50,076 bases of DNA from an uncultured Gammaproteobacteria bacterium. Its GTDB lineage: Bacteria; Patescibacteriota; Patescibacteriia; UBA9934; GWF2-40-263. Shown here piece by piece: positions 3,915 through 16,390 of the stretch. Positions within the stretch are counted from its first letter, which is position 1. Every line of letters begins with the position of its first letter. The translations under genes were made by a program, and so were the position numbers. The stretch is taken from assembly GCA_964402425.1 (NCBI GenBank), contig CAYOCD010000007.1:1081-51156 (forward strand), in the 5' to 3' direction. The notes below the pieces were generated by a model that ran no database searches, was not told where the DNA came from, and saw only the letters and a program-made list of their open reading frames with translations.

Positions 3915-4553
3915 CTATTTCATGTTTTTGTATTGATCCTCAAGGTTCTGCCCGGGAGCATAATCAAAAGGTGTTTGTGCGATTTGCAAAATCGTTTCTT
4001 TTAAAACTGGATACTGTGCCCCCATATAATGATCATCTGTGGCGGTCTCGATCATTCTTGCTCGCAATTGATCTGCGAGTTTTCTCCCATGCTCGATCGG
4101 AACCAATTTATCATCAAGCGAATGAATAACGACGTATTCTCGCGCTTTCCACATGAGCACATCCGCATCTAAATCATCAACAAACAGTCGGCGTAACTCT
4201 GGACGAGATACTTTCCAAGGTGCAGCAACCAAAATGACCGCGCGAGGTGTTTCCGTCATTTCAACCATTTCTAGGTATTGCAAAATAGCAAGCGCTCCGA
4301 GCGAATGTCCAAGCAAAATATCTTCATTTTTTAAAAATCCAATCTCTTTTTTCATGACTTCCATGAGTGCTGGCATGTTGATTCCTTCCACAATTTCTGA
4401 ATCTGTGGGTGTTTCCGGATCTTTAGGAGGCATTTTTAATGGAAGTTCTGGTGCAATAACCTCAAAACCTGCCGCGTGAAGTTCGTCACGAAGCCAGGGG
4501 TGAAAATTCATGTTTGGATTGGCATTAAAGCCATGAACAAGGATGACGCGCAT
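3915..4553 (-). CDS. RBBP9/YdeN-family alpha/beta hydrolase
   Basis: ILVHG, GHSLG nucleophile elbow, HSLDD..VP, DHY; start moved to ATG MRVILVHG. Confidence 0.85.
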   Translation of the reverse strand: MRVILVHGFNANPNMNFHPWLRDELHAAGFEVIAPELPLKMPPKDPETPTDSEIVEGINMPALMEVMKKEIGFLKNEDILLGHSLGALAILQYLEMVEMTETPRAVILVAAPWKVSRPELRRLFVDDLDADVLMWKAREYVVIHSLDDKLVPIEHGRKLADQLRARMIETATDDHYMGAQYPVLKETILQIAQTPFDYAPGQNLEDQYKNMK

Positions 4554-4681: not shown

Positions 4682-5539
4682 GTGGCAAAACGTCGTTGCA
4701 AAGGCGCGTACGTCCGGATTGTACTCCCGGACGAATTACGCGCTCTTCCGAACAATATTTACGAACTCATCTCTGAAGCATCTGAATTTGCTACTCTGAG
4801 AGCACATTCCATTTGGAGAATGTCAGAACAGCTTAGTGAAGAAACATTCAGAGAAGATCATGAACGATTCGCGGAAATCGCTGAAAAAAATAAAGGGCTA
4901 CACCACCTTCTCCTGGCGGTCTTTTACACAAAGATCCATCAAGAGCTAGAACCGAGAGTTCCTGTTCACAAAATGCGTATTCGTAATAAATTTCTTGTTG
5001 CCGCAATGGCACAACGAGAACTTTCACGCGCATGTCTTTCTCTGCAAGAAACAGATGCAAAGAATATTCAAAATATTGATATGACACATGTCGGCATCAG
5101 TGCCGTCACGTGGAAAACAAATTTTGTTGGTGCCCGATCTGTCGCGCGCGTCATTTGTGCGTTCATTCAAAAAGGCGCAGAGATTTTTTTCCCGATTGCC
5201 TATATAGATATCCAGCTACGTATTGATCTATTAGTTCGGTTATCACCCTCTGGGATCGGACTTTGTGTCCAAATTAAAACCGAACAACATTTAGACAACA
5301 TTCAACACCGCCTCATTCAAGAAGTTTCGTATAGTGAAGTAGAAAAACTTGCAACCAGCGACAAATATTTTTTGAACGGAGTGTCTGAATTCCGAAATAA
5401 CAACACAGGAACATGGCTTCCACTTGAAATCAAGATTGGAAGCATTCCGTACACCCAGACAACCGTTCATCCACCCGAAGTAATTCTGAGCGCCTTCGAT
5501 GTGATGATCCAAAATCTCATTACCCAAACAATCGCCTAA
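4682..5539 (+). CDS. hypothetical protein with a possible C-terminal PD-(D/E)xK nuclease-like domain
   Basis: Long ORF; GTG start after GGAGGAGG; motif RIDLLV...LCVQIK. Confidence 0.6.
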   Translation: MAKRRCKGAYVRIVLPDELRALPNNIYELISEASEFATLRAHSIWRMSEQLSEETFREDHERFAEIAEKNKGLHHLLLAVFYTKIHQELEPRVPVHKMRIRNKFLVAAMAQRELSRACLSLQETDAKNIQNIDMTHVGISAVTWKTNFVGARSVARVICAFIQKGAEIFFPIAYIDIQLRIDLLVRLSPSGIGLCVQIKTEQHLDNIQHRLIQEVSYSEVEKLATSDKYFLNGVSEFRNNNTGTWLPLEIKIGSIPYTQTTVHPPEVILSAFDVMIQNLITQTIA

Positions 5540-7116: not shown

Positions 7117-9696
7117 ATGAAACAAAATCGCACGTTGATTGTTATTTTCTCCCTCTGCGCGCTTGTGTTTGGATTTGTTCCAAATACCATACAGGCAACC
7201 ATGGCACCGGACGTCATCATTTCTGAAGTGATGTGGGCAGGTTCATCTGTATCTGCAGCAGACGAATGGATTGAACTTACAAACATGAGTAACCAACCCG
7301 TCGATGTTTCCGGATGGAGTCTTACGGGTGCATCAAGTGCCCCCATCATTTTTCCCGATAACAGCTTCATGGAACCACATACACCTTTTCTCATTTCAAA
7401 CTATGCGCACACAAACACCAACTCAACACTCAACACACAGTCGCAAATCGTCACGACCATGGTCTCACTCCCAAATGACAAACTCGCCCTTACGCTCACG
7501 GCACCGAATCGAGGCATGGTCGATTCCGCCGGCAACGGAGGAGCTCCTTTCGCAGGAACATCTGGCGGAACTGGAGATGCACTTCATGGACAATACCGAT
7601 CCATGGAACGAAGAGATTTCTTAATGGACGGTACGACAAAAGACGCGTGGACAGATGCAGATTCATCAAATGGATTTAAAGAATCCGCACTCGATCAAGG
7701 AACTCCCGGAAGTTTAAACGCTGATTTGCAATCTCTCCTCATTAACACGTCTACACCAACCACACCAATTGCTGTTGCGCCTGCAACTCCTATCGAACAA
7801 GAACAAATTTGTGAAGATGTCGCGATTGATCTTATCGCAACTGTCGCGCTCGAAGCGGACGTTATCCCTCAAGCAGAGCCAACATCTGACGAAATTCAAA
7901 CACTCACTCCAGCAGAACAACCCGCTTTGAATTCAATGGAACAAAATCCGCCACCACAAGGCACATTACGCATAAGCGAAATTTATTCGCATCCAGCAAC
8001 AGGAGAATCTGAATGGATCGAATTTGAAAACACATCTTCTTATCCAGTGACAACAAACGGATGGAATATGCTTGACGCAAGTGGCGCTTCTACTCTTCTT
8101 CCGGACGTCATTGTAAGTCCAGGAACATATCTCACAATCGAAAATCCAAAAGGTAAACTTAATAACGACAGTGACTCAGTCACCCTTAAAGATGCAAACG
8201 GATCTGTGATCGAATCCGTTCTCTATCATACAGATCTTGGAAATGTGCCGGATGTAAATGAATCTCTTGTTCGAATCAATGAGCAGACATTTGCTCTTAC
8301 GACAACACCAACAAAAAACACATCCAACACATTAACACCTCGCCCGCCAAAAACATCTTCTGTCTCAAATACAACAACGCAAGCAACCACAACTTCTGTT
8401 ACAGAAACGATTGCGACAAACACAGAAATCGTTTCATCGGTCCCTCACGAAACAGAACAACCAACAAAACCAGAAATCGTTACTGAACCTGAACCTTCAA
8501 AACCAATTCTTAAGACTCTTCGCCTTTCAGCATTCTATCCAAACACGGGCGGAAACGATCTAACAGATGAATACATTGAAATCGAAAATACAGGCGATCA
8601 ACCTGTTGTCCTTGATGGATGGAAGATCGTTGATGCGGGTGGAACCAAATTTACTTTTACAAAAGACACTCAAATTGCCGCATATACATTCCATCGTCTC
8701 CTTCGTCCTGAAACAAAAATCAGTCTAAATAATGACGGTGACACTGTTACGCTCATCGCCCCTGACGGATCGATCATTGATACACAAACATATGAACAAG
8801 CAAAAAGTCAGTTCGCATTCGCACGCTCAAACAACGTTTGGTCTTGGACGACAACAATTACGCCGAATGAACCAAGTGTGGTTTCGGAAAACAGCTCTGC
8901 GGTTTCAACAACATCTGAAACAAGAACACCTTCAACTCCAAACACTTCTCCAACCACACAATCCAGTGGGTCCATCTCTCCTTCTCTCGTAACCATCGAA
9001 GACGCAAAACTGCATGCGGATGGAACACGCATGAAAGTTCGAGGAGTCGTAACCGCTCTCCCAAACACGTTCAACTCACAAACCATGTACATCCAAGATG
9101 ACACAGGCGGAATTCAAATTTTCAAAAGTGATTGTCGCTTCCCAACACTCGCTCTTGGTCAATCGATTACCGTCACAGGTGTTCTCTCACACATCAACGG
9201 TGAGGCGCGTCTAAAAGTCATGAATCAAACATCTCTCACTGTTGGCTCAATCACAAATACCGTTTCACCGACTTCTGGAAATGTTTCTTCCATTGGTTCC
9301 CTCATGACCATTGCTGGAACCATTACATCAAAATCCGGAACACGACTTGCTCTTGATGTTGATGGAGAAACATGGAACGTAGATCTCCCAAAAACGAACA
9401 CAGCAACATATAAAAAAGGAGAATCTATCACAGTAAGTGGCATTCTTGCGAACGCAAAAAATGGTCCTGTCCTCAAAGCACGCTCAGAACAGGATGTAAC
9501 ACCGTTACCAAAAGCAGACACCAAACAATCCGTACCAAACATAACCGCCACAGAATCAACAGAACCAAAACAAACTCTCGCGATCGTTTTGATTCTTCTC
9601 TCATCACTCGCGTTCATTGGTCTTAAACTCCGACCACGCTTTTATGCATTCACACAATCCTATGGACGAAAGCCCTCTTTCCCTCCTCGAGCTTAA
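7117..9696 (+). CDS. secreted, membrane-anchored protein with three lamin-tail domains and OB-fold domains
   Basis: Signal peptide; three repeats of the type I(S)E..../E(W/Y)IE..N/GW...D/LNN..D; Thr/Pro/Ser linkers; VRGVVT..YIQDDTGGI OB-fold motif; C-terminal TM helix. Confidence 0.85.
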   Translation: MKQNRTLIVIFSLCALVFGFVPNTIQATMAPDVIISEVMWAGSSVSAADEWIELTNMSNQPVDVSGWSLTGASSAPIIFPDNSFMEPHTPFLISNYAHTNTNSTLNTQSQIVTTMVSLPNDKLALTLTAPNRGMVDSAGNGGAPFAGTSGGTGDALHGQYRSMERRDFLMDGTTKDAWTDADSSNGFKESALDQGTPGSLNADLQSLLINTSTPTTPIAVAPATPIEQEQICEDVAIDLIATVALEADVIPQAEPTSDEIQTLTPAEQPALNSMEQNPPPQGTLRISEIYSHPATGESEWIEFENTSSYPVTTNGWNMLDASGASTLLPDVIVSPGTYLTIENPKGKLNNDSDSVTLKDANGSVIESVLYHTDLGNVPDVNESLVRINEQTFALTTTPTKNTSNTLTPRPPKTSSVSNTTTQATTTSVTETIATNTEIVSSVPHETEQPTKPEIVTEPEPSKPILKTLRLSAFYPNTGGNDLTDEYIEIENTGDQPVVLDGWKIVDAGGTKFTFTKDTQIAAYTFHRLLRPETKISLNNDGDTVTLIAPDGSIIDTQTYEQAKSQFAFARSNNVWSWTTTITPNEPSVVSENSSAVSTTSETRTPSTPNTSPTTQSSGSISPSLVTIEDAKLHADGTRMKVRGVVTALPNTFNSQTMYIQDDTGGIQIFKSDCRFPTLALGQSITVTGVLSHINGEARLKVMNQTSLTVGSITNTVSPTSGNVSSIGSLMTIAGTITSKSGTRLALDVDGETWNVDLPKTNTATYKKGESITVSGILANAKNGPVLKARSEQDVTPLPKADTKQSVPNITATESTEPKQTLAIVLILLSSLAFIGLKLRPRFYAFTQSYGRKPSFPPRA

Positions 9697-9794
9697 AAAA
9701 CGACTTGAAGCACGCGCCTTTACGTACGGCGTTTCCTCGGCCGTTTCAACCCTCCTTGGAGAATACGTTTTAGAACTCTTAACCAAACCCTATT

Positions 9795-10016
9795 ATGTCC
9801 GACACACAAACAAAACCATGGTTTAACCAACTCAGACAAAAACTCACGGACATGGCAGAACAATTTGATCTCGATCCAATTCAATCCGAACAATTCCGCG
9901 AAACAATGTTTGGACTTTGCAAACAAGAATACATGCTCGGAAACAAATCCGGTATCGCCTGGGCATTCAAAAAAGCCGCAGAAAAACGCGGCAATTCACA
10001 AGCGGTCGCAGCGTGA
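9795..10016 (+). CDS. small hypothetical protein
   Basis: 73-aa ORF, co-oriented with its neighbours and filling the gap. Confidence 0.6.
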   Translation: MSDTQTKPWFNQLRQKLTDMAEQFDLDPIQSEQFRETMFGLCKQEYMLGNKSGIAWAFKKAAEKRGNSQAVAA

Positions 10017-10030
10017 TATAATCCATTTCT

Positions 10031-10414
10031 ATGGATAGAAATACACCCCTCACATTTGGACTCTTCGAAACCTACATGGATAAATTCCAAAGGTATCTTG
10101 AAGATCGATTCGAAAAAATTGGTGACCGATTTGATTCAATGGAACATCATTTGTCAGAGCAAATTGAAAATCTTGCGTTTGCCACAAAAACAGGATTCAA
10201 TGATATGGATAGGCAATTCCATGAAGTTCGTCAGGATGTTTCAGACATCAAACAAGACGTGACAATTTTGAAACAAGACGTTACTGTCATGAAGCAAGAT
10301 ATCTCGGTACTCAAAATCGATATGAAGGATTGCAAGCAATATATCCAAACATCTAGTATCGAATCAAGTTCAAATCGTGTGCGACTCCAAAATCTGGAAG
10401 CACACATTGCATAA
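10031..10414 (+). CDS. coiled-coil protein with heptad repeats
   Basis: Repeated KQDVxx(I/L/M) heptads; terminator follows. Confidence 0.75.
   Translation: MDRNTPLTFGLFETYMDKFQRYLEDRFEKIGDRFDSMEHHLSEQIENLAFATKTGFNDMDRQFHEVRQDVSDIKQDVTILKQDVTVMKQDISVLKIDMKDCKQYIQTSSIESSSNRVRLQNLEAHIA
10232..10315 (+). repeat. degenerate 21-nt tandem repeat x4, in frame
   Basis: caggatgtttcagacatcaaa / caagacgtgacaattttgaaa / caagacgttactgtcatgaag / caagatatctcggtactcaaa. Confidence 0.7.
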
Positions 10415-10416
10415 AC

Positions 10417-10449
10417 AAAAAGACTCGCCATTGCGGCGAGTCTTTTTTT
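10417..10449. terminator. bidirectional terminator
   Basis: aaaaagactcgcc-attgc-ggcgagtcttttttt between convergent genes. Confidence 0.8.
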
Positions 10450-11080
10450 ATTCAAGGGGTGGGAGATTAAAATCAACTTCAAGTTGTTTTCTTCGTGCAA
10501 CAACCGATGCAGAAGTTTTCTTTGCCAAAATATCTCTGCACACAAGCGCAGCCTGACGCATTTCATCAGAGCGTAAAAACGCGTCGTCAATTTTACAACG
10601 TTTTACAAGTTGTACTGCTCCAGAAGAATCTCCTCGCGTCATGGCAGCAAGTGAGACATCTTTCATTTTTCCTTGCATCTCTTCTGTTGCAAGTAACGCG
10701 TCCGGAATCTGAAAACGATCTATGATTCCAAATGCAGAAGATAATCGGTTTGCGGAAATCTCGGCAAGCGCCATATTCATGGCACTCGATTGCGTTTCTG
10801 GATTTGTATTAAATTCAGCCGTCTTCTCAGCACTCCAATCCCCCATCACAAGCGCAACATCTTCTGGATCATGTGCAATTTCTCCTGTCATCATTTTTTG
10901 CACAAACGCCTCTTCCGAGAGATTTAACCGCTTTGCTTTTTCAAGCAAAATTCCTCTTTGCCTACGCTCTTCTGCGTAAATTTCTTCTTCTGGAGACAAT
11001 TCTACTACTTCTACCTTTGTCTCTGGTACTGAAGCTGTCATTGCTTCGTCGGGCCGAAACCCAGATTCAGGATTATTCAT
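10448..11080 (-). CDS. hypothetical alpha-helical protein
   Basis: Start moved to ATG MNNPES because the longer ORF overlaps the tRNA; two similar units (RFQIPDALLATEEMQ / RCKIDDAFLRSDEMR). Confidence 0.7.
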   Translation of the reverse strand: MNNPESGFRPDEAMTASVPETKVEVVELSPEEEIYAEERRQRGILLEKAKRLNLSEEAFVQKMMTGEIAHDPEDVALVMGDWSAEKTAEFNTNPETQSSAMNMALAEISANRLSSAFGIIDRFQIPDALLATEEMQGKMKDVSLAAMTRGDSSGAVQLVKRCKIDDAFLRSDEMRQAALVCRDILAKKTSASVVARRKQLEVDFNLPPLE

Positions 11081-11106
11081 ATGAGAAAAATTATACAGGA
11101 ACAAAC

Positions 11107-11136
11107 AAAAACACCCAACCAAGGTTGAGTGTTTTT
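11107..11136 (-). terminator. terminator after tRNA-Gly
   Basis: aaaaacacccaacc-aa-ggttgagtgttttt. Confidence 0.65.
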
Positions 11137-11137
11137 G

Positions 11138-11212
11138 TGGAGCAGGAAACGGGATTCGAACCCGCGGCCTTCTCCTTGGCAAGGAGAAGCTCTACCCCTG
11201 AGCTATTCCTGC
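11138..11212 (-). tRNA. tRNA-Gly(GCC)
   Basis: gcaggaa/ttcctgc acceptor, tctcc-ttGCCaa-ggaga anticodon arm, GTTCGAATC, encoded CCA. Confidence 0.97.
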
Positions 11213-11337
11213 TAAAATCCTCAAAATTTGCGCCCAGCCAGCATGGCCCTGCGCTCCGCGTTCGAAGGACAAGTCGTCCATCTCACTTGCGGTGCTCGGT
11301 CTACACTGACTGTGCATCAAATTTTGAGAATTTTAGC
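11211..11337 (-). repeat. 127-nt hairpin element with 20-bp terminal inverted repeats abutting the tRNA-Gly 5' end
   Basis: gctaaaatcctcaaaatttg (11211-11230) vs caaattttgagaattttagc (11318-11337), 19/20 plus one G-U on the transcribed strand. Confidence 0.8.
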
Positions 11338-11367
11338 ACGCACACGTGCTAGCTCTTAAGTGGTCGT

Positions 11368-11396
11368 ATTCTAGTAAAAAGTCGCTGATACGTCAA
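11368..11396 (-). promoter_or_regulatory. putative promoter for tRNA-Gly and its hairpin leader
   Basis: TTGACG-17 bp-TAGAAT on the minus strand. Confidence 0.65.
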
Positions 11397-11416
11397 CGGA
11401 TCAAGAAAACCACAAA

Positions 11417-11503
11417 TTATCGATATTGTTCATGAAGTGCAATCGCCGTTGCGGTCGCCACGTTTAGGCTTTCTAATTTTGAGTTGTGTTCGATCATCAC
11501 AGA
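11417..11503 (-). pseudogene. orphan 3' fragment of the TrmH-family methyltransferase gene (diverged direct repeat of 14027-14113)
   Basis: Encodes SVMIEHNSKLESLNVATATAIALHEQYR* vs SVVIDHEVKLESLNVATATAIALHERYR* in the intact gene; 70/87 nt identical by manual alignment. Confidence 0.9.
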
Positions 11504-11524
11504 TATTCTGCCACGCATGATGGA

Positions 11525-11553
11525 TTGACTCAAATCCATTTATTTGTTATGTT
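11525..11553 (+). promoter_or_regulatory. promoter of the E2-E1-Ubl operon
   Basis: TTGACT-17 bp-TATGTT with extended TG; hairpin cttgct-ttcg-agcaag (11559-11574) at the predicted +1. Confidence 0.6.
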
Positions 11554-11610
11554 CCCTCCTTGCTTTCGAGCAAGAATGCCCTTTTACATGACACAAACAG
11601 GAGATGCATC

Positions 11611-13005
11611 ATGACGGACAACCAGAAAAATGTGCAAGTACACGCTTTTGCCGTACCCGCTCTGCTTATGCGCTCACTTGGTCTCAAGATACCATCCGGC
11701 GCCAACATGACACGGATGAGTGCAGAGACCGAAGGCTTCAACATCGCAGTCGACCTGTTCTCATTTCGCTCTGCACGCGCTCGCAACAAAGCCGCAAGTG
11801 CATTTGTTGCAACGGCCAAGCAGACGGGAAAGACTCTCGAAAAGGTTGCGTGTCTCGCAGACAACACGGCCACGGATCTCTATGTCACCATAACGAGTGC
11901 GGAACTTTCTTCGCCAGACGAACAAAATGATCGGAACTTCTATCTTTCCTTTAAAGAATTCATTGATCCGGACTTTGAACATCTCAAGGCCGTCTCACGG
12001 TTCTTCGGACTTCCCATCGTATTGTGCCACGGACACGACATTATTCAACCGCCGTTTCCTCAAACAAAAGATGGGCGCATCTATTTCTTCTACTGTTCAA
12101 GACCTCCAGGTGCGAAACCTGAAATAGACATGCCGGTTGAAGAACTCTTTGGCCTCAAGCTCTGGAAGCATGGTGAGAAACGATTCATTCATCCACAAAC
12201 CCCCGGACGAGGTCGTGTCATTGAGCAGAATGGTGTGTGCGTATTCCAAGTCCTTGGACGCAACTACTACCAGATCTGTTTGGTTCCGTTCGATGAACAC
12301 CATCCGGTGAATCGAGACACCATCTTCGTGAAACTCCTCGAGGTGCTCTATCACGATCTACTCGAACACAACGGAACTGATCTAGAAGTCGCTGAAGCAA
12401 CCAGTGAGGAGCTTGTAACATTTGGCGAAAAACAAGCCGACAAACTTCTCCGCGACGAACGGGATGATCTGAAAAAAACGGAATATGCGATTAGTAAAAA
12501 GGAACAAGAACTCTTTGAACTACTAGCAAAACGTGATCAGTCGATGAGGGTAATCCGTGCAATCTCTGCGGACCCATTCACTTCTGAACTGCATGATCGT
12601 CTTCCAAAAGAATGTTCCGAGATCAAAAACGTTGCTCATGTCTCCTCTGTTCATATTGTCGACGAAGCCATCCAAATCAAAACCACACCAATCGTGATCA
12701 CTCACGAAAATGTGAATTATGATCTTGGACCATTCATTATTCGACTCGATAATAAAGGTAAGCCATCTGTGTGGAGCGACAACCCCAAACACCCGAAAGG
12801 ACATCATCATCCGCACATCGGACGGATTCAACTCGCATGCTTCGGCAATATCACCCTCGCGGTTGCAAAACACATAGCAGCATTCCGCTATGCAGATGCA
12901 ACACGCCTCGTGATTCGATGGCTTCACTCGTACAATCCAGACAACACACTCACACTCATTGAAGAATGGGCCCCTGAAAAGAACTTGGAGGTTCCCCATG
13001 ACTAA
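11611..13005 (+). CDS. multidomain protein: unknown N-terminal region, coiled coil, C-terminal prokaryotic E2/UBC-like domain
   Basis: AGGAG RBS at 11599-11603; heptad region LRDERDDLKKTEYAISKKEQELFELL; HHPHIGRIQLACFGN resembles the E2 HPN...C active site; directly upstream of an E1 and a Ubl. Confidence 0.7.
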   Translation: MTDNQKNVQVHAFAVPALLMRSLGLKIPSGANMTRMSAETEGFNIAVDLFSFRSARARNKAASAFVATAKQTGKTLEKVACLADNTATDLYVTITSAELSSPDEQNDRNFYLSFKEFIDPDFEHLKAVSRFFGLPIVLCHGHDIIQPPFPQTKDGRIYFFYCSRPPGAKPEIDMPVEELFGLKLWKHGEKRFIHPQTPGRGRVIEQNGVCVFQVLGRNYYQICLVPFDEHHPVNRDTIFVKLLEVLYHDLLEHNGTDLEVAEATSEELVTFGEKQADKLLRDERDDLKKTEYAISKKEQELFELLAKRDQSMRVIRAISADPFTSELHDRLPKECSEIKNVAHVSSVHIVDEAIQIKTTPIVITHENVNYDLGPFIIRLDNKGKPSVWSDNPKHPKGHHHPHIGRIQLACFGNITLAVAKHIAAFRYADATRLVIRWLHSYNPDNTLTLIEEWAPEKNLEVPHD

Positions 13006-13654
13006 TCTGAATCTGTCGCAGCAAGACAAGTTGTTCGATGCAGAAACAGCAACGCCCATCACTGTCATTGGCGCAGGGTCTGTTGGGAGTTACGTTGTTC
13101 ACGGTCTTGCAAAAATGGGCGTCACAAACATCACCGTCTTTGATCCGGACTTCGTTGAATCACACAACATCCCCATGTCGCTTTACCGTCTGCGTGATCT
13201 TGCGCGACCAAAAGTTGAGGCGCTCAAGGAAATCATTGAGGACGCAACGGGTGTCGTTATTACCGGTCACAACACAGCTTATAATGGCCAGCCACTCAAA
13301 GGGGTGATCATTGCCTGTGTCGATACCATGGAAGCACGGCAAATGATCTGGAAAGCAATTGAGAACTCAGTGACGATCGATGTGCCCATTCTCTTTGATA
13401 CACGTGTGTCTGCAGAACTCGTTTGGGTCTTTGCGATCAGCCCAGAAGATCCAGATGACAAAGAGCTCTATCAACACCATCTGAACTACTCGACAAAAGA
13501 AACCGCACCGCCTATCTGTGGCCTTCATGGCATCGATTACGTGTCAAAACGTGCAGCCGGAATCGTCTGCATTGGATTGACATCATGGTGGCAACGCGGT
13601 ACAAAGAAGCGCCTCCACAAGGAGTTGGTAGGCGCACTCGAAGTGATCCAGTAA
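12998..13654 (+). CDS. ThiF/MoeB-family E1-like adenylyltransferase
   Basis: GGAGG RBS; VIGAGSVG nucleotide loop, FDPDFVESHN, PKVEAL, ACVDTMEAR, late Cys in PPICG; overlaps the upstream gene end by 8 nt. Confidence 0.92.
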   Translation: MTNLNLSQQDKLFDAETATPITVIGAGSVGSYVVHGLAKMGVTNITVFDPDFVESHNIPMSLYRLRDLARPKVEALKEIIEDATGVVITGHNTAYNGQPLKGVIIACVDTMEARQMIWKAIENSVTIDVPILFDTRVSAELVWVFAISPEDPDDKELYQHHLNYSTKETAPPICGLHGIDYVSKRAAGIVCIGLTSWWQRGTKKRLHKELVGALEVIQ

Positions 13655-13677
13655 GGATCCAACCAAGGAGCAACATC

Positions 13678-13929
13678 ATGCTGAGGATTTCCGTTTCAGT
13701 CGTACCCACGCACGGCAACCCTGTCGATCAAACCGTAGAAGTCGCTCCGAGTGGTGCTTCCGTGCAGGAGATCTGCAAAGCAGCCGGTATCGACACTGAG
13801 AACAAGGATCTGACCGTGAACGGTCAGCCCGCAGGTCTCAGGACTCATGTCGGCCAGAACGATGTGCTCGCAGCAAAAGAACGCGGCAAGCCCGTCGTCA
13901 CCACATCGGAACGTCCGCGCGGCTCCTAA
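13678..13929 (+). CDS. ubiquitin-like (beta-grasp, ThiS/MoaD-like) protein, 83 aa, C-terminus RPRGS
   Basis: AAGGAG RBS; pattern RISVSVV..QTVEV..GASVQEI..LTVNGQ..VGQND typical of beta-grasp Ubls; follows the E1. Confidence 0.75.
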   Translation: MLRISVSVVPTHGNPVDQTVEVAPSGASVQEICKAAGIDTENKDLTVNGQPAGLRTHVGQNDVLAAKERGKPVVTTSERPRGS

Positions 13930-13965
13930 ACCAACAACAACTTCACTGAATCACCTCTTCCCATT

Positions 13966-14025
13966 GTCGCTTCTTCAAGCGACTTTTTTTTAAACAAAAA
14001 ACTCGAGTTCTCCTCGAGTTTTTTT
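13966..14025. terminator. tandem terminators between the Ubl operon and the trmH-like gene
   Basis: gtcgctt..aagcgac followed by T8, then aaaaaactcgag-ttctc-ctcgagttttttt. Confidence 0.75.
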
Positions 14026-14026
14026 C

Positions 14027-14701
14027 TTATCGATACCGTTCATGAAGCGCAATCGCGGTTGCGGTCGCTACGTTCAAGCTCTCGAGTTTTACCTCGTGGT
14101 CGATCACAACAGACGTGCCATCTTTGGTCAGTGTAATTCCTGATCCCTCGTTTCCGATGATGAGCACGATTGGTTGATCTGTTACGAGCACACTTTCTGA
14201 TTTCGCGCCTGGGCGTTTTTCCAGTTTATAAATTGGTCGTGCGAGTTCTTTGAGTGCATCGCGCGCACGAGAAGGATCAAGATCGATCCAAGGAACAAGA
14301 AACAATCCTCCGGCCGACGAACGAATCACTTTTGTGGAACTTGGGTCGGCCGACTCCACCAAAATCATGGTGGCATCAAATCCAAGACAAAGACGCATGA
14401 TCGCACCAACATTTCCTGGATCTTGTACACGATCAAGCATCACAATTGTGTTTGATCGTTTAATGTCGTCGAGCGTCCACACAGGAATCTTTGCAATTCC
14501 AATCACTTCTTGTGGTGTATCTGTTGTTGCAATCTTTCCAAACGATCGCGCGCCCATGTCATTAATGTGCAAAACTTCTTGCACCGCACGCCCCGCCGTC
14601 TCAATCATCTTTTGACCTTCAACCAAACACAGACCCGTTTTATCACGGCCTTTTTTGGTCTCAAGTTGCGTAAGAAGTTTACGTTGGTTGTTTGTGAGCA
14701 T
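14027..14701 (-). CDS. TrmH/SpoU-family RNA 2'-O-methyltransferase
   Basis: VQDPGNVGAIMR, IIGNEGSG and ESLNVA SPOUT motifs. Confidence 0.93.
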   Translation of the reverse strand: MLTNNQRKLLTQLETKKGRDKTGLCLVEGQKMIETAGRAVQEVLHINDMGARSFGKIATTDTPQEVIGIAKIPVWTLDDIKRSNTIVMLDRVQDPGNVGAIMRLCLGFDATMILVESADPSSTKVIRSSAGGLFLVPWIDLDPSRARDALKELARPIYKLEKRPGAKSESVLVTDQPIVLIIGNEGSGITLTKDGTSVVIDHEVKLESLNVATATAIALHERYR

Positions 14702-14704
14702 AGG

Positions 14705-16390
14705 TTATGCAAGTGCTTGTAACATTCTTTCTTTTGCTTCGTCAATCGTTGTCGAACCTGCAAGGAGTGCTAAAACATCCTCATGCGTCATATTTTTTTC
14801 ATCGCGTAACTGTTCTGATAAATCAATCGGTTTCGAAAATTCTCTCCCTGCTTTGAATCCGAGTTTGAGTAAATCACGACCAAACAAAATCGGCTTTGGT
14901 ATTTCTTTTTCCACACCAAGTCTGCGAGCTTCTTCTCGAACCCACCTCCCTGCTTCATAAGGTTCTGGCAAAACAAATTGATCTGGATTCTTTGAATCAG
15001 GAAATGGTCCACGTCCTCGATTATCCGATTCAGCCACATAGGTTAATTCCGCAATTGTCGCGGGCCATATGCGCTTCGCGAGTCTACGAAACACTCCCGG
15101 CGCTACTTCCTCACCCGCAAGATGTTTTCGATACATGGTACCAGGCCACAAATGTTCTTTTACAAGTGGCACAATTTTTTGTTCAAGCTCTTTTGAAGCA
15201 CCAATTTTTCGAAGAAATACTTTTGTGGGTTCTGCTCCGGCCGGCTCATGTCCTTGTGATTTGATGCGCCCATCTTTGAATTCTGTTGTCGTGGGTTTTC
15301 CTAAATCATGACAAAGCGCAGCCATCATCACAACTTGTGATTCGTCTTTTCCTAAACGCTCGATCCGACACACGTCCTTTGCAGAATCAACAACCATGAG
15401 TGTGTGCGTCCAAACATCTCCTTCTGGATGCCAATCAAATTCCTGCGGAGTTCCGCTTAACGCAACAAGCTCTGGATAAAGGGATTCGATAACTCCCATA
15501 TCAAAAAGTGCCTGCAAAGCAAGAGATGGTCGCTCAGATTTTAAAAGAAGTTTATTCCACTCCTCACACATGCGCTCTTTTGGAAGCTCATGAAGAGATG
15601 GAACTATTTCTTGAAACAACTTCATTGACCTTTGATCAGGACGCAAACCAAAGCGTCCAATAAATTGCGCACCACGCATCACGCGCAACGGATCATCCTT
15701 AAACAATTCTGGATCTGTCACACGAAGCGTGCGGGTGCGCAAATCCTCAACACCATTAAATGGGTCGAATATCTCTGCCGTCAAAGGATCTTTCGAAAGT
15801 GCATTAAAGGTAAAATCACGTCGTCTCCCCGCTTCTTTGATTGACATGTTTGGATCCGTATCGACCAAAAATCCCTTGTGACCTTCACGAACCTTCGAAT
15901 CACGGCGCGGAATGGAAACATCAATATCCATTCCTCCATCCGTAATTTTCAAAATACCAAACGCTTTCCCAACAGAATCCACTTTCCCAAATGTATGAAC
16001 GAGTTTTTCAAGAGTATCTGGTTGTATTCCATAAATCTCTAAATCAAAATCTTTACTTTCTTTTCCGAGAACCTCATCACGCACAGATCCACCAACAAGA
16101 AGTGCACGGCCACCAGCCGCTTTTACAGCTTCTGCAATTTTACACACACGCTCAAACATCTCTCTTGCATCCTTCCCATCACGTTTTTCTACACGCCCTC
16201 CATATTCTTCACGCGACAATCCATGAAAGACACGAAATTTTTCTTTTCCTTCCACAAAAGGATCTGACATCCCAAAAAATTGCTCTTCTGCATTTTTTTC
16301 TTTTTTTGGTAATTGTTTTTCGGGAAGACGGGAAAAAGATTGACGATGTCGTTCTTCGTGAATTGATTGAAAGGGAGATTTTTCTGACAT
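14705..16390 (-). CDS. cca: CCA tRNA nucleotidyltransferase with HD domain
   Basis: VGGSVRD, DFDLE, RRDFTFNA, DDPLRVMR, HPEGDVWTH, CHDLGK. Confidence 0.93.
   Translation of the reverse strand: MSEKSPFQSIHEERHRQSFSRLPEKQLPKKEKNAEEQFFGMSDPFVEGKEKFRVFHGLSREEYGGRVEKRDGKDAREMFERVCKIAEAVKAAGGRALLVGGSVRDEVLGKESKDFDLEIYGIQPDTLEKLVHTFGKVDSVGKAFGILKITDGGMDIDVSIPRRDSKVREGHKGFLVDTDPNMSIKEAGRRRDFTFNALSKDPLTAEIFDPFNGVEDLRTRTLRVTDPELFKDDPLRVMRGAQFIGRFGLRPDQRSMKLFQEIVPSLHELPKERMCEEWNKLLLKSERPSLALQALFDMGVIESLYPELVALSGTPQEFDWHPEGDVWTHTLMVVDSAKDVCRIERLGKDESQVVMMAALCHDLGKPTTTEFKDGRIKSQGHEPAGAEPTKVFLRKIGASKELEQKIVPLVKEHLWPGTMYRKHLAGEEVAPGVFRRLAKRIWPATIAELTYVAESDNRGRGPFPDSKNPDQFVLPEPYEAGRWVREEARRLGVEKEIPKPILFGRDLLKLGFKAGREFSKPIDLSEQLRDEKNMTHEDVLALLAGSTTIDEAKERMLQALA

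Follow-up and report, generated by a model that had tools for sequence, protein, structure and literature searches.

Organization of the trmH locus

This report concerns a locus in a 50,076-nucleotide (nt) window of an uncultured bacterium (assembly GCA_964402425.1, contig CAYOCD010000007.1, positions 1,081 to 51,156 of the forward strand; Patescibacteriota in the GTDB lineage), and all coordinates below refer to this window. The 3' end of a SpoU/TrmH-family methyltransferase gene, here called trmH, is present twice at this locus, and the order is truncated copy, insert, full gene, with both copies of the gene end in direct orientation. The insert holds three genes, encoding an E2-like protein (open reading frame 1, ORF1), a small E1-like adenylyltransferase and a ubiquitin-like protein (Ubl). 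A preliminary description of this DNA had regarded the region as a Ubl operon that was brought into trmH by recombination, and the name is borne out by the predicted beta-grasp Ubl, the E1 and the E2-like gene.

A repeat search identified a single family of long direct repeats in the region, formed by positions 11417-11503 and 14027-14113 (87 nt, 80% identity, 2610 nt from start to start). Our recount reproduced the figures given earlier, with 70 of the 87 bases shared, 17 mismatches, and agreement between the translated copies at 23 of the 28 residues before the stop. When 11417-11539 was used as a DNA query against the 970,933-base assembly, only two places were matched, the second with an E-value of 3.5e-17, showing that the repeat is far beyond chance. 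That the copies differ mostly at synonymous positions is only just true, as nine of the 17 differing bases lie in residue-keeping codons and seven of the 12 differing codons are synonymous (hand count from the codon display). Both borders of the island thus consist of 87-108 nt of the 3' end of the target gene, the target gene being intact, and the repeated unit of 2610 nt comprises the insert, one copy of the gene end and a terminator.

The full gene (14027-14701, minus strand) encodes a putative RlmB-like RNA 2'-O-methyltransferase of 224 amino acids (aa), and the second repeat copy (14027-14113) forms its 3' end. It passed the cut-off of the Pfam model SpoU_methylase (PF00588; E 1.2e-23, 84.2 bits against a cut-off of 29.7), while its best NCBIfam match was RlmB, under the cut-off of that model. 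Comparison with congeners, for which one genome per species was used, identified close TrmH orthologues in three of them, with protein identities of 93% (208/224) in G006, 90% in G002 and 86% in G004, and the gene has the same length of 675 nt in all three. A hairpin terminator, recognised as an inverted repeat at 13996-14026, is shared with G006; it is homologous to the terminator 3' of trmH in that genome, with the BLAST alignment to G006 beginning at 13996, and it therefore belongs to trmH and not to the insert. Residues T190 and L191 of the working end are shared with G006 only and E203 with both G006 and G002; the left copy has S, I and N at positions 190, 191 and 203, as in G004. The working gene end thus appears to fit both the gene body and the genome's own lineage.

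The left copy (11417-11524, minus strand) forms the end of an ORF of 40 codons, of which the final 28 residues align to the trmH product. SpoU_methylase matched this 40-aa product under its cut-off (E 0.0015, 19.1 bits against 29.7) and over profile positions 119-142 only. Beyond the repeat copy proper (11417-11503), weaker trmH homology extends in frame for seven more codons, to 11524, with base matches over 11504-11524 of 14/21 to G002, 12/21 to G004, 11/21 to G006 (the last counted by hand) and 6/21 to trmH of the same genome; the length of the fragment is therefore about 108 nt, corresponding to the last 36 or so codons of trmH. The nearest relative of 11417-11503 is the end of the intact trmH of G004 (79/87 bases, compared to 70/87 for the working copy next to it), which supports the earlier proposal that this stranded gene end probably evolved as a functional end in another lineage. 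Of the eight differences from G004, four change a residue, and three of these four replacements (V199M, D201E and R222Q) hit residues that are invariant in all four working genes. For comparison, the G004 end and the working end of the present genome differ at 16 of 87 bases, yet this results in just two residue changes. Judged by the repeat, the codon alignment and the identity counts, the left copy is a decaying, dead copy of the trmH end.

The fragment ends at 11524 and, with no spare base between them, the promoter-like site of the cassette begins at 11525 (11525-11553, plus strand; TTGACT, 17 nt, TATGTT; 9/12 in a promoter scan). At its other end, the cassette has a terminator of its own, found by terminator scan (13966-13991, plus strand; 7-bp stem and T run), which is separated by about 4 nt from the trmH terminator. 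With its promoter, E2-like gene, small E1 gene, Ubl gene and terminator, the cassette is a self-contained unit of 2.47 kb (11525-13991). The limits of 11504-14026 that had been assigned to the island can be trimmed to approximately 11525-13995, 13996-14026 being the trmH terminator. Pfam detected no recombinase among the three ORFs of the insert and there is no spare DNA at either border. In the whole assembly, a single tyrosine-recombinase match was found, located on another contig, and serine-recombinase matches were absent, so the earlier observation that no integrase or transposase lies nearby still holds.

Junctions in independent metagenomes

The assembly is metagenome-style and consists of 19 contigs, and an arrangement of this kind might arise if sequences of two strains or species had been fused into a chimeric contig at their common trmH end. 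At least half of the region 10900-14600 was contained in 24 freshwater/lake metagenome runs originating from 21 studies. We aligned Logan contigs of four runs from four studies (X4, X6, X8, and X9) over 10400-15200, and found that the left junction was bridged in all four with 0 differences (X6 10400-11723, X4 11368-11723, X8 11400-11873, and X9 11482-11781). The right junction was likewise bridged in all four (X4 and X6 11776-15200, X8 13565-15200, and X9 13157-14716). None of the contigs listed spanned the whole of 10400-15200; they broke at 11694-11805, with two ORF1 alleles coexisting. Since both junctions were bridged in four of four independent runs, as the preliminary description had proposed to check, mis-assembly was rejected, and the probability of a chimera at this locus is in our view negligible.

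No joint removing the island was present among the contigs of the four runs, bearing in mind that contigs drop rare variants. The sole joint seen connected 11212 to 11368 in one X4 contig (side 30, depth 3.6), and it deletes a palindromic element next to the neighbouring tRNA gene rather than the island. All 21 variant positions listed among the four lake metagenomes lie within ORF1 (11724-12849), 15 of them at third codon positions, and in the other 3.7 kb compared, including trmH, the tRNA, the E1 and the Ubl genes, there was no variant position among those listed.

The empty site and the neighbourhood of tRNA-Gly in congeners

The cassette and ORF1 were found in none of the seven congeners, including the three with close TrmH orthologues. 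In G004, an intact trmH, without a terminator, leads directly into the same tRNA-Gly promoter, 128-nt palindrome and tRNA-Gly that are found beside the fragment here, and G004 is thus an empty-site relative. Such a relative had been predicted in the preliminary description, including a trmH end closer to 11417-11503 than the working end is. Relatives lacking the operon but carrying the fragment, which would have spoken against transfer, were not encountered: within the genus only G000 has a second match, and congeners without the operon have no extra fragment. In G006, trmH is followed by its terminator, the tRNA-Gly promoter and tRNA-Gly, and a different island of 2.6 kb lies beyond the tRNA at the same locus (L033, G006:C4, approximately 7160-9910). 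This island encodes a GNAT acetyltransferase, a RimK-like ATP-grasp protein and a hydrolase-like protein, contains no integrase ORF, and is bounded on one side by 26 nt that remain of the tRNA-Gly 3' end and on the other by a full tRNA-Gly with a different terminator. In G002 (L034, G002:C5, 9958-10032) tRNA-Gly lies inverted with respect to trmH, two other hairpins come after it, and the spacer between trmH and tRNA-Gly differs in each of the four congeners compared.

In the window, the fragment is adjoined by a tRNA-Gly(GCC) gene (11138-11212, minus strand), identified by ARAGORN and by Rfam (tRNA, 70.8 bits). The gene has a promoter at 11368-11396 (minus strand; TTGACG, 17 nt, TAGAAT; 10/12 in a promoter scan), whose hexamers are the same in G006 and G002, and a terminator hairpin at 11105-11138 (minus strand; terminator scan) that is conserved in G004 and G006. 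Promoter and tRNA are separated by a 128-nt palindromic element, an inverted repeat at 11213-11340. The predicted RNA hairpin of this element has a folding energy of -69 kcal/mol (z -8.3); the element occurs in four copies in the present genome and is also present in G002, G006, and G007. It directly adjoins the first base of tRNA-Gly and would be transcribed in the pre-tRNA leader. A search of 11213-11416 against Rfam returned nothing beyond the tRNA.

Identity to G004 along this neighbourhood was 75/75 for the tRNA, 35/41 for its terminator, 123/128 for the palindrome, 76/76 for promoter and spacer (11341-11416) and 79/87 for the fragment, followed by 12/21. The fragment and the adjoining 204 nt (11213-11503) together are 95% identical to G004 (278/291). 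Over 40 kb, the protein-coding DNA is 65-81% identical to G004 and only RNA genes elsewhere reach at least 89%, while G006 and G002 are slightly nearer than G004 to the present genome in most of the coding stretches compared. A pseudogene piece cannot keep an identity of 91% across a divergence that saturates synonymous sites, and hence this mosaic patch was exchanged recently between lineages. The fragment and its flank appear to form a phylogenetically discordant piece, and the fragment is probably not the genome's own old trmH end in a simple sense. This makes doubtful the polarity assumed in the preliminary description, in which the fragment was the recipient's own former end, as the patch is G004-like and the working end fits the genome's own lineage. 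The tRNA-Gly gene and its terminator are the only long near-identical stretch at the locus between species that are about 20% apart, thus providing a natural anchor for exchange of the patch, and tRNA-Gly is likely to have served as the homologous anchor between lineages.

Further along on this side of the locus, a tandem 21-nt repeat (10250-10291) is located in the ORF at 10031-10414. It corresponds to a heptad K-Q-D-V-x-x-x in a coiled-coil-like protein of 127 aa that is conserved in G006.

Origin of the insert

A truncated copy that touches the insert, and a full copy in direct orientation that continues into the gene, match the product expected from insertion-duplication. We are therefore inclined, with moderate confidence, to believe that the insert came in through trmH homology and duplicated the trmH end without an integrase, and that at least one further exchange between lineages took place, anchored on tRNA-Gly. 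The incoming DNA would have carried about 108 nt of the trmH end of a congener, a terminator and the cassette, and would have recombined through that homology. Entry may have taken place by Campbell-type integration of a small circle in a single crossover, or by integration of an 'ends-in' linear piece, and neither would require an illegitimate join; a one-sided homologous anchor combined with an illegitimate far join is less likely. The linear fragment with an illegitimate far end that had been suggested earlier is thus not needed, insertion-duplication via the carried homology being simpler. The catalyst would have been the homologous recombination of the host following DNA uptake, no recombinase having arrived with the insert, and a ComEC-family gene in the genome (PF03772, 168.8 bits, over the cut-off) is a candidate for the uptake machinery. 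To account for the patch, either the duplication would have arisen in a G004-like lineage and reached the present genome by homologous exchange, with the invariant tRNA-Gly as anchor, or the flank would later have been overwritten from, or exported to, a G004-like lineage. The proposal of a recombination scar left by transfer was thus right in kind, but the history probably comprised more than one event.

Insertion-duplication of the Campbell type and homology-facilitated illegitimate recombination have both been described in natural transformation (de Vries and Wackernagel 2002 and others, as cited in PMC6382021). In the account given there, DNA likewise enters via a short homology without a dedicated recombinase, and the homology is doubled around the insert (PMC6382021). 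That account refers to laboratory observations in Acinetobacter, Pseudomonas, and Streptococcus (PMC6382021), whereas for this uncultured bacterium we infer the recombination mechanism, as well as the number, order and direction of the events, from the anatomy of the locus.

Several observations weigh against entry by insertion-duplication followed by tRNA-anchored exchange. The two copies are only 80% identical and their longest common exact run is 11 nt, making them a poor substrate for RecA. No TrmH match is encoded in any of 18 loci with relatives of the cassette, no donor or intermediate genome with the cassette beside trmH was found, and among the nine of these loci with enough flank none has a repeat bracketing the cassette. 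The argument from protein residues for the polarity of the two ends involves three residues. No breakpoint was detected along the working trmH by sliding identity or by four-taxon site patterns, for DNA or protein; the phylogenetic breakpoint anticipated in the preliminary description was thus not detectable, with a four-taxon DNA signal that is star-like at about 80% identity, synonymous sites that are saturated, and nine informative protein sites. Identity to G004 drops at 11503/11504 (Fisher p 0.0007, for a boundary that was chosen post hoc); the drop may mark a crossover point or a hybrid attachment site, or it may be the result of local mutation. Finally, G004 is a metagenome-assembled genome of 81% completeness in which the locus lies on a contig of 2958 nt, and there is a slight possibility that this contig is a chimera.

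The model of the preliminary description was that a linear donor fragment, carrying a trmH end plus the operon, crossed over within the recipient's trmH and underwent an illegitimate join some 108 nt ahead of the resident stop codon, making the fragment the recipient's own old end and the working end that of the donor. The anatomy fits this model, as does the empty site of G004 with its fragment-type end followed by the tRNA-Gly promoter; a ComEC gene is present, and such recombination is documented in transformable bacteria according to PMC6382021. The palindrome has no other copy in G004 but three more in the present genome, which hints weakly at a patch that originated here and passed from here to G004. 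However, a fragment and flank that are 95% G004-like and bear G004-type residues, within a genome that is otherwise 65-81% G004-like, are not what would be expected of an own old end, and it is the working end that bears the residues and the terminator expected of its own lineage. Moreover, the crossover would have had to take place between trmH sequences of about 80% identity, and no breakpoint was seen. We therefore consider the model unlikely. A different course, in which the genome's own trmH end was duplicated locally, for example during repair, and then diverged, with the cassette inserted between the copies, would agree with the direct orientation and in-frame register of the copies. 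This was rejected, since the fragment is closer to the G004 gene end (79/87) than to its own neighbour (70/87) and matches its own gene at only 6 of the distal 21 nt, leaving local duplication extremely improbable.

The locus could also be the remnant of a site-specific element that brought a replacement trmH end as part of its attachment site, with the integrase lost or acting from elsewhere. The model for such an element is prophage e14 in icd of E. coli K-12, with its icdC pseudogene (Hill et al., 1989, as described in PMC13626634). As described in that source, e14 is recognised by the direct repetition of its target's 3' end, the target gene being restored in frame and icdC remaining behind. 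The insert brings a substitute 3' end that keeps a protein-coding gene intact, and the displaced end persists on the far side as a short pseudogene in direct orientation with partly synonymous differences, all as at the present locus (PMC13626634). A hybrid fragment that switches at position -87 is expected from a crossover inside an attachment site, the island of G006 between a 26-nt tRNA-Gly remnant and the full tRNA likewise lacks an integrase, and in five loci a tRNA gene is situated about 200 nt upstream of a cassette relative. On the other hand, e14 is described as a 15-kb prophage with its own integrase and SOS-induced excision (PMC13626634), whereas the insert here measures 2.5 kb and holds three cargo genes without a recombinase, the contigs of the four runs showed no excision product, and the displaced end comes from another lineage than the gene body. 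As the promoter follows the fragment with 0 nt to spare and the two terminators are about 4 nt apart, the island offers no room for an integrase relic. Only one tyrosine recombinase and no serine recombinase were detected in the genome, relatives of the cassette elsewhere lack trmH pieces or bracketing repeats, and ORF1 has no match in phage or plasmid collections. An origin from a site-specific element is thus improbable in our judgement.

Where a genomic island has entered a tRNA gene, the 3' end of that tRNA is found repeated at the borders of the island. The present island follows the same principle of gene-end duplication, and an example of the tRNA type lies at the same locus in G006. 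The present island departs from that type in its target, a protein-coding gene, and in its repeat, which at 87-108 nt is long and reaches no more than 80% identity.

The cassette and its relatives

Pfam recognised ThiF in one of the three island ORFs, gave one weak TGS match and left one ORF without a family. The latter is ORF1 (11611-13005, plus strand; 464 aa), which has no family in Pfam, PADLOC or NCBIfam; a profile search of the PDB returned nothing below an E-value of 0.079, and the ESM Atlas had no usable match. In its predicted structure, with a predicted local distance difference test score (pLDDT) of 82.1, residues 320-456 or so align to many E2, UEV and RWD chains (Z 5.0-6.8, root-mean-square deviation 2.9-4.5, 79-118 residues), with Foldseek E-values that are all above 0.07, suggesting a C-terminal UBC/RWD-like, that is E2-like, domain. 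Residues H400, P401, H402, and C410 are invariant in 14 of 14 ORF1 sequences. The spacing of eight residues from H-P-H to Cys is, we presume, equal to that from H-P-N to Cys in canonical E2s such as UbcH5. The N-terminal domain of the model (residues 4-94, encoded by 11611-11890) aligns to gamma-glutamyl cyclotransferase/ChaC structures (Z 5.8-6.4), pointing to a GGCT/ChaC-like fold; this is a lead only, and if the likeness is real, a module that cleaves or forms amide bonds may be fused to the E2-like domain.

The second gene (12998-13654, plus strand) encodes a putative small E1-like adenylyltransferase of the ThiF family. The protein of 218 aa consists of one ThiF domain (Pfam E 1.6e-15), an assignment that agrees with PADLOC, NCBIfam and a PDB sequence search, and in the 'E1-E2' models of PADLOC it matched the E1 part only. 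The third gene (13678-13929, plus strand) encodes the Ubl, a protein of 83 aa for which alignment, the predicted model (pLDDT 85.5) and Foldseek all indicate a beta-grasp, ubiquitin-like fold. All 48 Foldseek rows listed were of the ubiquitin type (SUMO, ubiquitin, NEDD8, ISG15, and Ubl domains), 16 of them with an E-value of at most 0.001 (best 1.4e-4). All 12 of the aligned relatives share the C-terminus R-P-x-G-S without exception, and this family therefore has Ser after Gly at the very C-terminus, compared to the Gly or Gly-Gly ends of known Ubls.

Bacterial operons for ubiquitination-like systems include Bil, Bub and type II CBASS (10.1101/2024.11.21.623953). Like these, as far as they are described in that source, the cassette combines an adenylyltransferase of the E1 type with a predicted beta-grasp Ubl and with a putative E2-fold protein that has a candidate for the catalytic Cys (10.1101/2024.11.21.623953). 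Bil operons are described with a JAB/JAMM peptidase and an E1 having tandem adenylation domains and a Cys domain, whereas the cassette has no JAB match and a single-ThiF E1. Bub operons are described with a DUF6527 serine protease and E1/E2 fusions, whereas no DUF6527 match was found in the three ORFs, and type II CBASS is described with a CD-NTase, which the cassette lacks (10.1101/2024.11.21.623953). The cassette further differs from known operons in that its E2-like domain ends a 464-aa protein without a Pfam family, and its Ubl ends in G-S rather than G.

A word-indexed protein search with ORF1 returned 14 relatives, the sequence cluster of ORF1 itself having 12 members, and an exhaustive profile search of cluster representatives gave 2134 at E <= 0.001, 734 at 1e-10 and 132 at 1e-30; none of ten diverse members of the family had a Pfam match. 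Relatives of ORF1 were present in five of 161 other genomes of the order, with at most 30% identity over most of the protein (one further match of 43% spans just 49 residues), and in five of 400 other genomes of the class (E <= 1e-20). In 18 related loci from genomes and metagenomes, assigned by record title to Parcubacteria and Gammaproteobacteria, ORF1 was followed by the E1 gene in 17 and the Ubl gene was present in 14, and the order of the three genes is kept in other phyla. The nearest relative of the cassette, found in one scan each of genome and metagenome contigs, is 81% identical and lies on a contig of 1565 nt without flanks. Together with searches of the order and the class, these scans yielded no relative above 81% and none beside trmH. 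The GC content of the cassette, 0.49, is within the top 3.4% of windows of a genome with a mean of 0.433 (standard deviation 0.029), and the cassette looks foreign.

Relatives of the cassette begin about 200 nt downstream of a tRNA gene in five loci, this being tRNA-Leu(caa) in L043, L045, L046, and L054 and tRNA-Trp in L050, which suggests repeated insertion beside tRNA genes. In L050, a 155-nt direct repeat (4104-4258 and 5038-5192; 84%) brackets an ORF of 195 aa without a known family, just 3' of a cassette relative of 43% identity.

We searched the literature for the cassette in candidate-phyla-radiation bacteria and found no relevant report, in a search that covered few subscription journals. 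We speculate, as a tentative possibility rather than an expectation, that the cassette is a previously undescribed, minimal three-gene system resembling ubiquitination, which spreads from one genome to the next as a naked promoter-to-terminator module, in ultra-small bacteria as well as in other phyla. It would do so by integrase-free recombination through short pieces of housekeeping or tRNA genes carried from host to host, and the trmH fragment would then be an 'address label' from the previous host.

Implications

As a trace of gene transfer between related lineages, the scar at this locus is clear though rather ordinary, and part of its interest lies in the uncharacterised cassette itself. 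Ultra-small bacteria of the candidate phyla radiation have few recognisable mobile-element genes, and their gain of accessory genes is poorly documented. The locus provides a clean, assembly-independent example of a complete accessory operon located between a gene and its stranded end without a recombinase, in a setting where a tRNA gene is identical across species about 20% apart and two such species have recently exchanged the adjoining 291-nt patch. Homologous recombination acting via conserved RNA genes, and via short pieces of genes that are carried along, is thereby indicated as one way in which these organisms gain islands. The cargo, whose ORF1 belongs to a sizeable protein family without a Pfam model, could represent a bacterial ubiquitin-like conjugation system of a new kind.

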